From an uncultured virus (IMG/VR IMGVR_UViG_3300037067_002170) (Duplodnaviria > Heunggongvirae > Uroviricota > Caudoviricetes): DNA of 20,000 bases. Positions 1,212 through 14,222 of the stretch are shown one piece after another (within the stretch, counting starts at the first letter, position 1; the number at the start of each line of letters is the position of its first letter). The stretch spans positions 45,383-65,382 of the IMG/VR virus record IMGVR_UViG_3300037067_002170; one strand, 5' to 3'. The notes beneath the pieces were generated by a model, which worked only from the letters and a program-made list of their open reading frames with translations, did no database searches and was not told the DNA's origin. A program made the position numbers and the translations under genes.

Positions 1212-4200
1212 ATGCAAGTTATCCCAAACTCTGAAATAGGCAGGATGGAAGGAGAGCAGGCTACACTGGATGGTATCCTCGACGATACCGCCGCTGTGGG
1301 GCTTCAGAATTCCATGATCTCGGACTACATCTGGAACTGCTGGGAGAAGGCCAAGCGTTTCAAGGAGAACGGGGCAGAGGCTCGTATTCTCGCAAATATG
1401 CGACAGATAGACGGCCAGTATGATCCCGGTAAACTTGCCGACATCAAGAAGATCGGTGGTTCTGAAGTCTTCATGATGATTACTGATGCCAAACAAAAGA
1501 ACGCTAGTTACTGGGTGCAGGACATTCTTTTCCAGCCAGGACAGAGATCTTGGGGAATAGAGCCCTCCCCGGTACCAGAGCTTCCCCCTGAAGTTAAAGA
1601 GCAGATCGTAACCGCTATATTCCAATCACTAATGGAGGGACTATCTCAAGCAGCAGAACTCACTGGGCAGATGCCCAACGAGCAGTATATCCAGGGCGAG
1701 ATAGCCAGCGCTATGCCGGAGATAGAGAAGGCGGTTAAGGAAGAGATCCTCCGTACTGCCAGAGAGAGGGCCAAAGACACAGAGCAATCGGTAGATGACA
1801 AGCTCACCGAGGGTGGGTACTACTCAGCTCTCCGCAAGATGATCCCCAATTGCATTGCCCACACAGGGTTCCTAAAGGGTCCAATTAACAAGAAGCGCAG
1901 GATCATGAAGGTGGTTACCGATGGAGAGGGTAGACTTACCAAGCAAGTTACCGAGGAGATTTACCCCACATGGGAATCCCGTCACCCCCTCTATATTTAC
2001 CCTGCACCGGGTTCTGTGGACGTAAACGATGGATACCTCATTGACAGGGTTAAACTCACGCCACTTGCCCTCCAGGACCTCCTAGGGGTGGATGGTTATG
2101 ACTCCGAAGAGATTATGGCAGTACTCGATGAAGCAGAGAGCGGAAAACTGTTCGAGTGGCTCCCTGTAGACCAGGACATCGCAGACATCAACGAAGAGAA
2201 TTCTATGATCTCCTACGACTCTGACAAGATAGATTGCTTGGAGTTTTGGGGAACAGTAAGAGGCTCCTACCTTGCTGATTGGGGGTTAGCCGTAGAGAAC
2301 GAATCTTTCTTCTACAACATCAAGGCATATCTCATTGGTAGTCACGTTATTGGTATACAGTTTAACGATGACCCTATGGGGCGTAAACCGTTCTATAAGG
2401 ATTCATTTGAGAACAAAGATGGATCGTTCTGGGGTAAGGGGCTCCCTGAAGTAATTGCAGATTGCCAGGGTGTGTGTAATGCTGTCTCTAGAGCAATCGT
2501 GAACAACGCAGCTATGGCTAGCGGTCCACAGGTGGAACGCAACATAGATCGCATCCCTCCCCACGCTCGAGAAGACACAGCGCTCATCCCCTGGAAGGTG
2601 TGGGACACTACATCTGATATGATGAGCAATGGGAAAGCCATCGAGTTCTTCCAACCGCCAATGGTGGTAGAGAAGTTGCTCCAGGTATACAATGCTTATT
2701 CCAAGATTGCAGACGAGCACTCGGGGGTTCCGGGATTTGCTCATGGTGATACACAGGTCGGGGGAGCTGGCAACGCTCTAGCAAACTACGAGGAGATCTT
2801 GACTCCTTGTGGGCCGGTTGCAATGGGTGATGTTTCTGTTGGGGATGAAGTTGTAAATACTTATGGTGGGGTCTCTAAAATAACCGGAGTTTATCCGCAG
2901 GGAGAATCCGATATCTTTAGAATGTATTTTAATAATGGCGAACACGTAGATTGCGATATGAACCACAGGTGGTCAGTTGAGGCATTCGATCATTATGATC
3001 GTAAAGTCAGAACAATGACTACTGCCGAGTTACTGGAACGTGGACTTTTCCAGAAAACGAAAAAAACAGACAAGTACCCGGACGGTTACAGGCCAAAATG
3101 GGCATTGCCGTTGATAGATGGGGTGGAGTTTGCTCCCAGAGATGTCAAAATTGACCCATATACTCTGGGTTGTTTAATTGGAGATGGCACGTATGGAAGT
3201 CGTAGTTGCAAACTAATAAGCATGGACCAGGAAATATTTGACCGGATACCATATCCATTGGGCAAGAAGCAATTTAGACCGGAAAATAAATCATGGGTGC
3301 AATCAATAGGAACCATTACTGGTGATTTTAGAAGTTATGGTCTCAACTGTAAATCAATTCACAGGTTTATCCCAGAAGACTATCTGTACAATACAAGAGA
3401 AGTGCGTTTAGAATTGCTAAGAGGGTTGATGGACACGGACGGTACTGCGTATAAGACAGGTTCTGTGCGTTACTATACATCTTCAAAGAGGCTCGCTCGC
3501 GACTTTAAGGACCTCGTAAATTCTCTGGGTGCTAACGTTCAGCAAATAGAGAGAAGAGAGAATGGGTCGTTTGTTATTAAAGGCAAGAAGTATGTGAGTA
3601 AAACGTCTTATAGTGTTGTCTTTAATCTACCCGGAGAAAAAATATTTCACTTAGAAAGAAAACAGTCAAAGGTAATAACATCCGCAAAACCGCCACATAC
3701 TTTTATAGTTGGAGTTAAATACATCGGAAAATTCGAAGCCACCTGTATTTCGGTGGACTCTAGCAATGAACTGTTTGTTTGCAAAAACCTAATAGTTACG
3801 CATAACACAGCTTCGGGATTGAACATGTTGATGTCTTCGGCAGCTCGTGGCATCCGTGGGTTAGTGTCCTCTCTTGACGAGAACGTCATCAAGCCAGCGG
3901 TCGAACGCCAGTACGTATATATAGTCGACACCGAACCAAACTATGGATTCATTTGTGACTACAATATTGTAACCTCTGGATCTGCCGCAGCTCTAGTGAA
4001 AGAGCAGATGGCAGCACGCCGGATCGAGTTCATGAACGCTACAGCCAACCCACTCGATGCTCAGATCCTTGGGATCGAAGGACGCAAGTACCTCCTGGAG
4101 GAAACAGCTAGATCTATCCAATTGGATCTGTCTCGCGTGTTTCCGCCAGCACAAACAGCACCCCCACAACCAGCTGGTCCTGGCGACCAGTCAGAGAAAC

Positions 4201-4274
4201 CACAGGCATTAGATGCGGCAGGAAGCCCCGTAGTTGGGCAAGACTCGCGCGCTTTCAATCAACCAGCACAATAG
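1212..4274 (+). CDS. Portal protein precursor (1020 aa) containing an intein; spliced product ~676 aa
   Basis: RBS AGGAG upstream; follows terL. Podovirus-portal-like motifs include FWGKGLPEVIADCQ...NAVSRAIVNNAAMASGPQ and ADEHSGVP...GAGN|TASGLNMLM, and it ends in a Pro/Gln-rich C-terminal tail. Confidence 0.88.
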   Translation: MQVIPNSEIGRMEGEQATLDGILDDTAAVGLQNSMISDYIWNCWEKAKRFKENGAEARILANMRQIDGQYDPGKLADIKKIGGSEVFMMITDAKQKNASYWVQDILFQPGQRSWGIEPSPVPELPPEVKEQIVTAIFQSLMEGLSQAAELTGQMPNEQYIQGEIASAMPEIEKAVKEEILRTARERAKDTEQSVDDKLTEGGYYSALRKMIPNCIAHTGFLKGPINKKRRIMKVVTDGEGRLTKQVTEEIYPTWESRHPLYIYPAPGSVDVNDGYLIDRVKLTPLALQDLLGVDGYDSEEIMAVLDEAESGKLFEWLPVDQDIADINEENSMISYDSDKIDCLEFWGTVRGSYLADWGLAVENESFFYNIKAYLIGSHVIGIQFNDDPMGRKPFYKDSFENKDGSFWGKGLPEVIADCQGVCNAVSRAIVNNAAMASGPQVERNIDRIPPHAREDTALIPWKVWDTTSDMMSNGKAIEFFQPPMVVEKLLQVYNAYSKIADEHSGVPGFAHGDTQVGGAGNALANYEEILTPCGPVAMGDVSVGDEVVNTYGGVSKITGVYPQGESDIFRMYFNNGEHVDCDMNHRWSVEAFDHYDRKVRTMTTAELLERGLFQKTKKTDKYPDGYRPKWALPLIDGVEFAPRDVKIDPYTLGCLIGDGTYGSRSCKLISMDQEIFDRIPYPLGKKQFRPENKSWVQSIGTITGDFRSYGLNCKSIHRFIPEDYLYNTREVRLELLRGLMDTDGTAYKTGSVRYYTSSKRLARDFKDLVNSLGANVQQIERRENGSFVIKGKKYVSKTSYSVVFNLPGEKIFHLERKQSKVITSAKPPHTFIVGVKYIGKFEATCISVDSSNELFVCKNLIVTHNTASGLNMLMSSAARGIRGLVSSLDENVIKPAVERQYVYIVDTEPNYGFICDYNIVTSGSAAALVKEQMAARRIEFMNATANPLDAQILGIEGRKYLLEETARSIQLDLSRVFPPAQTAPPQPAGPGDQSEKPQALDAAGSPVVGQDSRAFNQPAQ
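2775..3806 (+). mobile_element. Class 3 (Ala1, W-C-T) intein with LAGLIDADG homing endonuclease, 344 aa, in the portal
   Basis: Block A ALANYEEILTP...VGDEV; block B CDMNHRW (Trp 2970-2972); LAGLIDADG motifs YTLGCLIGDG and LLRGLMDTDG; block F ATCISV (Cys 3744-3746); block G IVTHN followed by Thr+1. Removing it restores GAGN-TASG. The DNA looks more AT-rich than its flanks. Confidence 0.93.
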
Positions 4275-12483: not shown

Positions 12484-13194
12484 ATGTCAGTTGCAAGAGT
12501 GTCGGGTCACCCCGATTATAGTAATGACGGGACTTCCCGCTTCATACCGGAATTGTGGTCGGGTAAGTTTCTCGTTAAATATTACATGGCTACCTTCTGG
12601 AGGGATATCACAAATACCGACTATGAAGGCGAGATCAAAAACCAGGGCGATACGGTTATCATCCGTACCATCCCTACCCTGACCATCAATGATTATCAGA
12701 AGGGTCAGAAACTCAACTACGAGCGCCCTGAGTCTACTCCGCTTGAGATGGTTATCGACAAGGGAAAATACTGGGGCTTCACTGTTGACGACATCGACGC
12801 ATATCAGTCCGATATGAAGTTGATGAATGCGTTCTCGCAGGATGCTGGTGAGCAGTTGAAGATCACGGTTGACGCCGATGTTCTCCAGGGAATCACCTAT
12901 GGCTCCGCTGGAACGTTCCCTGGCTCGTCTTATAATGCTGGCGCTACTGCCGGTTATGAGAGTTCGAGCTTTAATCTGGGTGCCTCTGGCTCCCCTGTTC
13001 AGCTTACTAAAGCCAACGTCCTTGACTACATCATCGACTGCGGTACGGTTCTTGATGAACAGAATATTCCGAGCACTGGCCGTTGGATGGTTATCCCCTC
13101 CTGGATGTCTAACCTTTTGATTAAGTCTGATCTTAAGGATGCCTCCATGATTGGTGGAGAGTCCACGTTGAGAAATGGGAGAATAGGTGTGATT
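12484..13194 (+). CDS. Major capsid protein, exon 1 (aa 1-237)
   Basis: FIPELWSGK...ITNTDYEGEIKNQGDTVIIRTIP...IDKGKYWGFTVDDID...P..GRWMVIP...LRNGRIGVI is a P22/HK97-fold coat signature. The exon ends in U at the 5' splice site. Confidence 0.9.
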
Positions 13195-13962
13195 GAATCT
13201 CGATCCCTTGCACAGTAATGTGCATTGAATAACTGGGTGAATTCAGGGAAAGCTAAATTATGTGGATACTGATCGGACAAGAAAAAGCAACTGATGGAAG
13301 AACGATGAATCGCTGGAAATGCGGAGCGTGTGGATATGAATCCTGTTCCAGGTTTAAGCGATCTCAAGATCACATCAAATGCAAAAAGTGCTTGACGATC
13401 GAACGCAATAGGGCAACATTCGGTAAGCATCGTGGAGTTGGTGATCTTACCAGTACATTCTTTACATATTTCAAGGGCGTAGCAAGAAGAAGGGGTATAT
13501 CTTTTTCTGTTACCATTGAAGAGTTGTGGGATCTTTTTGTGAAACAGGGAGGCAAGTGCGCCCTGTCTGGATTACCGATCACTCTTTCCAGGTGCGTATA
13601 CCGGGGAAATTATGAAGCGTGTACATCTTCCATTGATCGCATTAATTCACACAAGGGGTACGAGTTGGATAATGTCCAATGGGTACACAAATATGTGAAT
13701 GTAATGAAAAATGGTTTTGCCCAAGATGAGTTTATTCATCTGTGTCACAAAGTAGCTACACAACATGCTGATCCTGAGCCAAGCTCTCTGAAAGGGTATT
13801 TGCTAAAAGACGGAGAGAAGGTGCAGAGACTAACTGGTGAGGAATCCCTTTCCAATAAACCAGACACGAGCGCCCGGCATCCTTTAAAGAAGGATGATGA
13901 TATAGTCCGACACTCCAAGGAAACTCGGAGGATGCTTTTAAGTGAAGCAGCATAAACATTTG
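13195..13962 (+). ncRNA. Group I self-splicing intron (IA-like, with P7.1 insertion), 768 nt, in the major capsid gene
   Basis: P1: exon GATT pairs with IGS GATC, giving a U.G pair at the splice site. P2: TGCACA-GTAA-TGTGCA (13209-13224). P3: CTGGGTG/CGCCCGG. P4: TTCAGGGA/TCCTGAG. P6a: CTCTCTG/CGGAGAG. R element GTGCAGAGACTAA (13821-13833). P8: CATCCTT/AAGGATG. S element ATGATATAGTCCG. P9 has a GAAA loop; terminal G at 13962. Splicing joins ...GVI|DTFTLY in frame. Confidence 0.92.
13260..13955 (+). CDS. Intron-encoded putative homing endonuclease (Zn-finger plus HNH-like beta-beta-alpha-Me domain)
   Basis: N-terminal CGAC...CKKC; ARRRGISF.VTIEEL; KCALSG...SIDRINSHKGY..DNVQWVHK.VNVMK nuclease motif; lies wholly within the intron. 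Confidence 0.82.
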   Translation: MWILIGQEKATDGRTMNRWKCGACGYESCSRFKRSQDHIKCKKCLTIERNRATFGKHRGVGDLTSTFFTYFKGVARRRGISFSVTIEELWDLFVKQGGKCALSGLPITLSRCVYRGNYEACTSSIDRINSHKGYELDNVQWVHKYVNVMKNGFAQDEFIHLCHKVATQHADPEPSSLKGYLLKDGEKVQRLTGEESLSNKPDTSARHPLKKDDDIVRHSKETRRMLLSEAA

Positions 13963-14196
13963 GACACCTTTACTCTTTATAAAAGTAACAACCTGTACAG
14001 CGCTACAGACGGTTCCTTCACGGGTTACTACATCCCGTTTGGTACCAACACGGCTACCTCCTTTGCGGCACAGATCACCAAGACCGAATCGCTTAGGGCA
14101 GAATCTACCTTTGGCGATCTCATCCGTGGCCTTATGGTCTATGGTTATAAGGTTGTTAAACCCGAAGCTCTTGGGCTTCTGTACGCACGTAAGTAA
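13963..14196 (+). CDS. Major capsid protein, exon 2 (77 aa; spliced protein 314 aa)
   Basis: DTFTLYKSNNL...SFAAQITKTESLR...FGDLIRGLMVYGYKVVKPEAL is the canonical C-terminus of this coat family and has no convincing independent start. Confidence 0.9.
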   Translation, partial: DTFTLYKSNNLYSATDGSFTGYYIPFGTNTATSFAAQITKTESLRAESTFGDLIRGLMVYGYKVVKPEALGLLYARK

Positions 14197-14222
14197 GACT
14201 CTAGGAAAGGAGAAAGCAAACT

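Follow-up and report, generated by a model that had tools for sequence, protein, structure and literature searches.

The locus raises the question of how a tailed phage makes its major capsid protein when the gene for it appears as two separate open reading frames. The stretch analysed (the window, 20,000 nucleotides) is the final 20 kb of a 65,382-base record of an uncultured virus with an estimated completeness of 99%, and it holds a tailed-phage morphogenesis block comprising the end of the terminase gene, portal, lysozyme, a probable scaffold, major capsid, adaptor and tail genes. Two tRNA genes, Gln(ttg) at G000:C1:31022-31093 and Pro(tgg) at 34583-34660, lie outside the window. The capsid protein belongs to phrog_267 (PHROG 267, major head); its closest cultured relatives are 48% identical and come from the Rhizobium phages RHph_TM, and relatives at 53% sit in Marinobacter and Smithella bins. 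ORF 12484-13218 encodes 244 residues and ORF 13942-14196 the missing C-terminal end of the capsid protein, as an earlier sequence-only reading had described. Gene callers would report them as a truncated capsid and an orphan fragment.

The interval between the two coding parts is a group I intron in the single major capsid gene of the genome. The gene is built as follows.

12484..13194, plus strand: major capsid exon 1, codons 1-237, ending in U; phrog_267 match with E 7e-44 over profile positions 38-248
13195..13962, plus strand: group I intron of 768 nt with terminal G 13962, placed by RF00028, by its absence in the relative L170 and by junction score
13963..14196, plus strand: major capsid exon 2, codons 238-314, 77 residues; phrog_267 match with E 3e-12 over profile positions 251-325

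The group I identity proposed by the sequence-only reading is confirmed by a match to RF00028 at 13185-13930 (70.6 bits against a cut-off of 50, E 2.2e-16), which is the sole Rfam match in the window and the one RF00028 match across the entire 65-kb record. The core helices are paired, and their parts lie at the following positions.

13191..13205, plus strand: P1 (13191-96 with 13200-05), a U13194.G13202 pair at the 5' splice site, internal guide 13200-13205
13209..13224, plus strand: P2, a perfect 6 bp, whose GUAA loop 13215-13218 contains the in-frame stop TAA 13216-13218
13233..13263, plus strand: 5' strands of P3 (13233-39), P4 (13243-48) and P5 (13251-63, two possible registers)
13763..13908, plus strand: 3' core, with P5' and P4' at 13763-77 and P6/P6a at 13778-13822
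Further helices, plus strand: P7 (13826, 13828-32 with 13903-08), P7.1 (13834-63), P3' (13871-77) and P8 (13878-96)
13909..13962, plus strand: P9 (13913-30, GAAA loop), P9.1 (13934-48), P9.0 of 2 bp by eye, and the terminal G

Pairing is as expected in P2, P3, P4, P5, P6, P6a, P7 (with a bulged A), P7.1, P8, P9 and P9.1, and the P3-P7 pseudoknot and the G-binding site (bulged A, G-C pair) are present. P10 with the 3' exon amounts to about 2 bp by eye and includes no in-register run of 3 bp; the two intron halves have unremarkable folding z-scores (-0.23 and -1.69). The insertion between P7 and P3' at 13834-63, which has an inner hairpin, is of the P7.1/P7.2 type, named elsewhere as a feature of group IA (IA2-like) introns (PMC3984707).

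Joining 13194 to 13963 is in frame and gives 237 + 77 codons, a protein of 314 residues as in L170. Since this close relative lacks exactly 13195-13962 and joins position 13194 directly to 13963 (exon 1 alignment 88%), the position of the junction is fixed. A boundary slid by two bases is equally compatible with the L170 alignment; the boundary given here alone has a U before the intron and a G at its end. When junctions were enumerated by profile score, this choice reached 26.6 against 12.8 for the runner-up. The U at the 5' splice site, the terminal G, the 314-residue coat protein and the 244-residue unspliced product ending in the P2 loop all stand as they were first read. Exon 1 extends to position 248 of the phrog_267 profile and residue 3 of exon 2 begins at 251, so that the two are contiguous without a gap; the Pfam Phage_capsid_4 match of exon 1 fell below the cut-off. 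In a capsid alignment of 21 rows there is no gap at the exon junction, which sits in a conserved motif of the family. The exon matches abut without extra DNA in 35 of 37 viral loci, the remaining two being one that is contiguous across the codon-237 site and one cut by a contig end.

The most unusual detail lies in the capsid codons beside the intron, which are almost entirely rewritten relative to L170 with the protein unchanged. The capsid proteins of the window and L170 differ at 14 of 314 residues (96% identical), and their DNA is 89% identical. After codon 22, a place that is uninterrupted in the window, L170 carries an insert of 620 nt that contains a LAGLIDADG ORF; this insert gives no RF00028 match and is a probable group I intron. 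The window and L170 are a reciprocal pair, each having its own intron at its own site in the capsid gene, and so near-identical a pair provides a clean natural experiment. The rewritten codons fall in two parts.

13152..13191, plus strand: upstream part of the recoded tract, from sequence comparison with L170
13965..13986, plus strand: downstream part of the recoded tract, codons 238-245, all of which differ with no amino-acid change

Of the 16 synonymous-eligible codons lying no more than 8 codons from the junction, 14 differ from L170; in the rest of the gene 60 of 270 do (Fisher p 1.7e-7). No other peak in the capsid gene is as strong, and a stretch as high arose anywhere in 0.025% of 20,000 permutations (P 0.00025). 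The whole tract of 19 codons causes no amino-acid change, and the exon 2 protein does not differ from that of L170 at all; the silent changes in codons 238-245 together with this identity indicate that exon 2 is under protein-level selection. Third-position GC in the window is 0.40 in the tract against 0.57 elsewhere, and in L170 it is 0.65 against about 0.62 (the latter computed with the first 22 codons out of frame, a small effect), so the intron-bearing side is the odd one.

Most simply, the recoded flank is a homing co-conversion tract, since repair that copies donor exon along with an intron would leave such a tract, here about 40 nt on the upstream side and 24 nt on the downstream side. 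Co-conversion, overlap of the ORF with the core, and in-frame stops have been documented in introns of T4 and in other bacterial introns (PMC2988022, PMC3984707). A contig of run X5 aligns to 12880-13280 with no gap, reaching 86 nt past the start of the intron, and has L170-type bases at seven listed places between 13152 and 13176. This one contig, for which 14 of the 36 differences are not displayed, suggests that another genome with the intron has a shorter tract, as would be the case if homing events differ in how much exon they carry over.

It may also be that the intron splices and its flanks were recoded in an arms race (self-immunity, escape) or by repeated mutagenic repair, and not by one import. 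The near-saturated synonymous change over codons that keep every amino acid and the odd codon usage of the intron side both agree with this, and no donor was found for the tract: over 57 nt the window differs from its nearest alleles at 18 positions and from L170 at 21. The tract peptide is identical to that of L170; had the donor been very distant, such identity could not be counted on, a point against the co-conversion reading. In fungal mitochondria, raised diversity beside mobile introns has been reported, with mutagenic repair as a candidate cause (PMC5378118). However, import from an AT-richer donor predicts the same odd codon usage on the intron side, the X5 contig appears to be intron-bearing with L170-type bases up to 13176, and other sites in the capsid family have no such peak. 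We consider recoding by conflict or repeated repair possible but doubtful.

Sixteen further intron-site comparisons had enough codons, and in none of them is there a comparable excess. The best is site 22 of L170 (7/14 against 67/272, p 0.055), and site 46 of the relative L175, at a contig edge, gives 1/6 against 0/245. The proposal that divergence peaks mark all insertion sites of the family proved weak: the pooled other sites reach 0.40 against a background of 0.24 (p 0.03), an excess driven by codons 41-50 and absent in other pairs. A second patch of divergence from L170, at window positions 12603-12639, changes 9 of the 10 codons 41-50. It is centred on the codon-46/49 sites, which hold introns in relatives and none now in the window or L170, and is possibly a scar of past homing.

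The sequence-only reading, which was right about the intron, its splice sites and its products, missed a long ORF within the intron.

13260..13955, plus strand: intron ORF of 231 residues, predicted from PHROG matches, alignments and a structure model to comprise an N-terminal CxxC-CxxC domain and a PacI-like HNH nuclease

The ORF begins in the P5 region, runs through the 3' core and ends 7 nt before the terminal G, its last ~60 codons being the ribozyme core read as protein. PHROG endonuclease families match it with E values of 2e-19 to 5e-14; Pfam assigns no family to it or to any of 22 aligned members, and sequence searches against the PDB returned chance rows only. It keeps all 14 invariant residues of the 22-sequence family alignment, and the start at 13260 is consistent with its relatives. 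The tail encoded by the intron core is common to all 13 closest relatives aligned, so these are intron ORFs of the same build. RF00028 at its cut-off has no match in 19 of 20 endonuclease-homologue loci, from which it follows that most distant relatives are either free-standing or in introns missed by the model. At L039:896-2686 a ribonucleotide reductase gene is interrupted by group I introns, two in tandem; a GIY-YIG ORF lies in one of them, and the other encodes the closest locus-level relative of the window endonuclease. A literature search found no characterised member of this family of P5-inserted group I intron enzymes.

The structure model of the protein (pLDDT 84.5) has PacI as its best, though moderate, match in both Foldseek (E 9.8e-3, probability 0.99, with no match under 1e-3) and VIA (Z 8.2, rmsd 4.5 A, 110 aligned; an unrelated chain reaches Z 7.0). 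The leading rows of both searches are mostly HNH nucleases, with the beta-beta-alpha-metal fold and PacI first, and the modelled HNH fold may be taken as secure. The nuclease part contains D126, R127, Y134, N138, N147, C100 and C162. D126-R127 and Y134 are invariant in the 22-sequence alignment; H143 is invariant there and variable in a second alignment. PacI, of His-Me finger group 20 (PDB 3ldy, 3m7k), is the closest structural match of the intron protein, in which Asp-Arg replaces Asp-His and is followed by an invariant Tyr seven residues on and by an invariant Asn. This Tyr would fit the Tyr-for-His site of PacI at what we take to be the residue spacing of that enzyme. Unlike PacI, the protein is intron-encoded and not a stand-alone restriction enzyme, has an extra N-terminal four-cysteine domain, and shares 16-17% identity with it. 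In PacI a tyrosine takes the place of the histidine found in other HNH enzymes (PMC5714182, PMC4081073, PMC3384342). We hypothesize that the intron endonuclease may use a PacI-type mechanism, which if true would add one more nuclease type to the intron-encoded set.

The ORF likely encodes a homing enzyme that would cleave intron-less alleles and promote homing. A homing endonuclease ORF makes this an ordinary mobile intron, whose presence is explained without a regulatory role. The endonuclease AUG lies in P5 and an SD-like AGGG, likely its ribosome site, in P4; with the ORF continuing through the 3' core, translation should compete with folding, and at the start itself the two should exclude each other. 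A fuller version of the PacI hypothesis, in which a PacI-type (tyrosine-for-histidine) homing endonuclease targets the capsid gene of co-infecting relatives and the 19 recoded codons reflect self-immunity or escape with the protein tightly constrained, seems to us unlikely. If it were true, the window and L170 would be a natural reciprocal pair for intron warfare over a virion gene.

How unusual the insertion is depends on the rest of the capsid family. Four scans gave 277 capsid loci, a non-random sample in which three of the scans contributed the best 80 of about 570-590 matches; grouping them together with the window at 95% identity over the final 75 residues gave 147 clusters. Among the matches listed in this non-random sample, 17 of the 147 clusters, about one in nine, have a split member, and the insertions occupy eight sites, after codons 22, 43, 46, 49, 96, 122, 216 and 237. 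The count includes L013, which was taken from the comparison of exon matches in viral loci. The split at codon 237 is found in the window only and in none of the 277 loci among the matches listed. A 17-nt junction pattern had no match in viral contigs, and an 18-nt P3-P4 pattern matched 46 loci, none with a capsid exon match. The codon-237 site is new among these loci, and the novelty is modest. The literature search found no survey of capsid insertion sites.

In three sets of loci tested, RF00028 matched 6/12, 11/14 and 1/7, with 7 over the cut-off. Inserts at sites 22, 43 and 122 were missed or barely matched, and even at E 10 there was no match to those at site 22 (L013, L170), site 122 (L035, L183) and site 43 (L329). 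The inserts at sites 22 and 122 have junctions with a U before and a G at the end, shared compact core-like motifs and LAGLIDADG ORFs, and are probably a group I subtype poorly modelled by Rfam.

Site-22 and site-122 inserts: L170:499-1118; L002:2388-3000; L013:2405-3000; L030:1423-2025; L031:2023-2624; L035:413-1416; L183:1477-2500

L175 and its near-identical relative L165 differ at 1 of 251 synonymous-eligible codons, and the site-122 insert is present in L175 only, so gain or loss has been recent in the family. A contig in a Smithella bin (L404:398-2500) has a capsid gene of the family whose inserts match the L175 inserts, which hints weakly at anaerobic hosts for part of the family.

The terminase, portal and capsid genes of the window phage each have a mobile insertion. 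The portal gene at 1212-4274 (1020 residues) contains an intein-like insert of ~350 residues with a LAGLIDADG domain, at residues ~519-870. It ends in His-Asn before Thr and apparently starts after Gly-Asn-Ala, without Cys or Ser, and may be a non-canonical or Ala-started intein. The terminase large subunit gene (G000:C1:43148-46585, ending at window position 1203) encodes 1145 residues with Cys-started intein-like segments.

Mobile insertions in three morphogenesis genes, and the different introns that the window and L170 hold at different sites of one gene, would suit an element that is adaptive for the phage, either as an endonuclease weapon against the capsid gene of co-infecting relatives or because splicing times capsid synthesis. 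An intron endonuclease of PhiPA3 mediates interference competition (PMC11620839). Yet selfish homing accounts for all the observations, and no regulatory element was seen: promoter-like matches (4 against 5.2 in shuffled sequence) and terminator-like matches (3 against 3.2) are at chance level. Eight scattered sites, each occupied in a minority of lineages, also fit parasitism better than a switch that has been kept. An adaptive role is rather improbable, and selfish homing is preferred.

Splicing of the intron is expected from the biology of group I introns. The capsid exons have a single match in the whole record, and because a genome 99% complete has this one capsid gene, capsid output would depend on splicing. 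Contigs of 4 runs, probably all DNA, gave no joint skipping 13195-13962. A joint of 13071 to 14140, with 300 letters between and 25-letter sides, belongs to the capsid gene of another organism and is not a spliced form.

Were the intron degenerate or poorly spliced, the capsid could be made in two pieces, one of 244 residues and one of 84 residues from GTG 13942. The second frame does exist (13942-14196). In the interval 13927-13944, a GGAGG in P9 lies 10 nt before this GTG, which is in frame with exon 2, and the endonuclease stop is 11 nt past it; low-level separate translation of the C-terminal piece could occur from this GGAGG and GTG. Against a capsid built of two pieces, the core helices are all intact, the GGAG is paired in P9, the junction is inside a gap-free conserved motif, and the best-studied parallel, LittleE, splices (PMC3706429). 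A two-piece capsid is very improbable, and splicing remains the preferred reading.

An assembly artefact or chimera, which might be feared in a contig of an uncultured virus whose own source may be run X1, has a negligible probability, because one X1 contig covers the whole stretch with no differences, the independent study X2 has 13775-13943 and 14005-14220 unchanged, X5 covers the 5' junction, and the insert has complete group I anatomy.

Very probably, then, the element is a mobile group I intron in the sole capsid gene that splices, encodes a homing endonuclease and is bordered by co-converted flanks. In the model that we propose, ribosomes translating the late transcript would get no further than the UAA of the P2 loop, 7 codons past the 5' splice site, and the ribozyme core would be left free to fold. 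An exogenous G would attack after U13194, the exons would be joined at G13962, and the 314-residue capsid protein would be made. Translation of the endonuclease, in competition with folding, would be kept low or would proceed from the excised intron. During mixed infection the endonuclease would cut or nick intron-less capsid alleles near codon 237, and repair would copy the intron together with some tens of donor exon bases.

As a kind of element, group I introns in capsid genes are already known, and the rarity implied by the sequence-only reading did not hold: they have been reported for LittleE, Tuc2009 and crAss-like phages and are common in the phrog_267 family. The capsid gene of mycobacteriophage LittleE has an 819-bp group I intron with an endonuclease ORF, spliced in vivo according to RT-PCR and protein sequencing (Pope et al. 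2013, PMC3706429), and the paper on it cites Tuc2009 as another phage whose major capsid gene has a group I intron (PMC3706429). LittleE resembles the window in the similar length of its capsid intron, the U before and the G at the end, the endonuclease ORF and an intron-less close relative (PMC3706429), and also in a stop shortly after the 5' splice site (PMC11855218). It differs in that its ORF is on the opposite strand and LAGLIDADG/HNH-related, in the capsid family and the site, and in that splicing is demonstrated for LittleE (PMC3706429), whereas for the window we infer it.

In the Delta members of the crAss-like phages, introns of group I in the MCP are typical, and a Zeta MCP is in five pieces (Yutin et al. 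2021, PMC7886860). These uncultured phages share with the window phage the combination of capsid group I introns and terminase inteins, and differ from it in that the capsid gene can lie in as many as five fragments and a genome can have as many as 14 introns (PMC7886860), against one RF00028 match in the window record. The window phage uses the standard code and belongs to an unrelated phage group. Group I introns number 18.5 on average in Jug phages, and 37 of the 76 that were tested have RNA support (PMC12880540).

The T4 introns of td, nrdB and nrdD, with I-TevI-III, resemble the window intron in an in-frame stop just inside the intron, an ORF that runs into the core, a sequestered ribosome site, co-conversion of flanking exon and a P7.1-type insertion between P7 and P3' (PMC2988022, PMC3984707). 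Unlike the window intron, they have DNA-metabolism genes as hosts (PMC2988022, PMC3984707); in the window no dedicated promoter was detected, the ORF is in P5 and the nuclease is of another type. What the window adds to these systems is modest: an insertion site seen in no other locus compared, a reciprocal pair of introns in one capsid gene, and a sharp peak of synonymous divergence, whose abrupt borders mark the part of the gene on which homing or pressure from the endonuclease acted.
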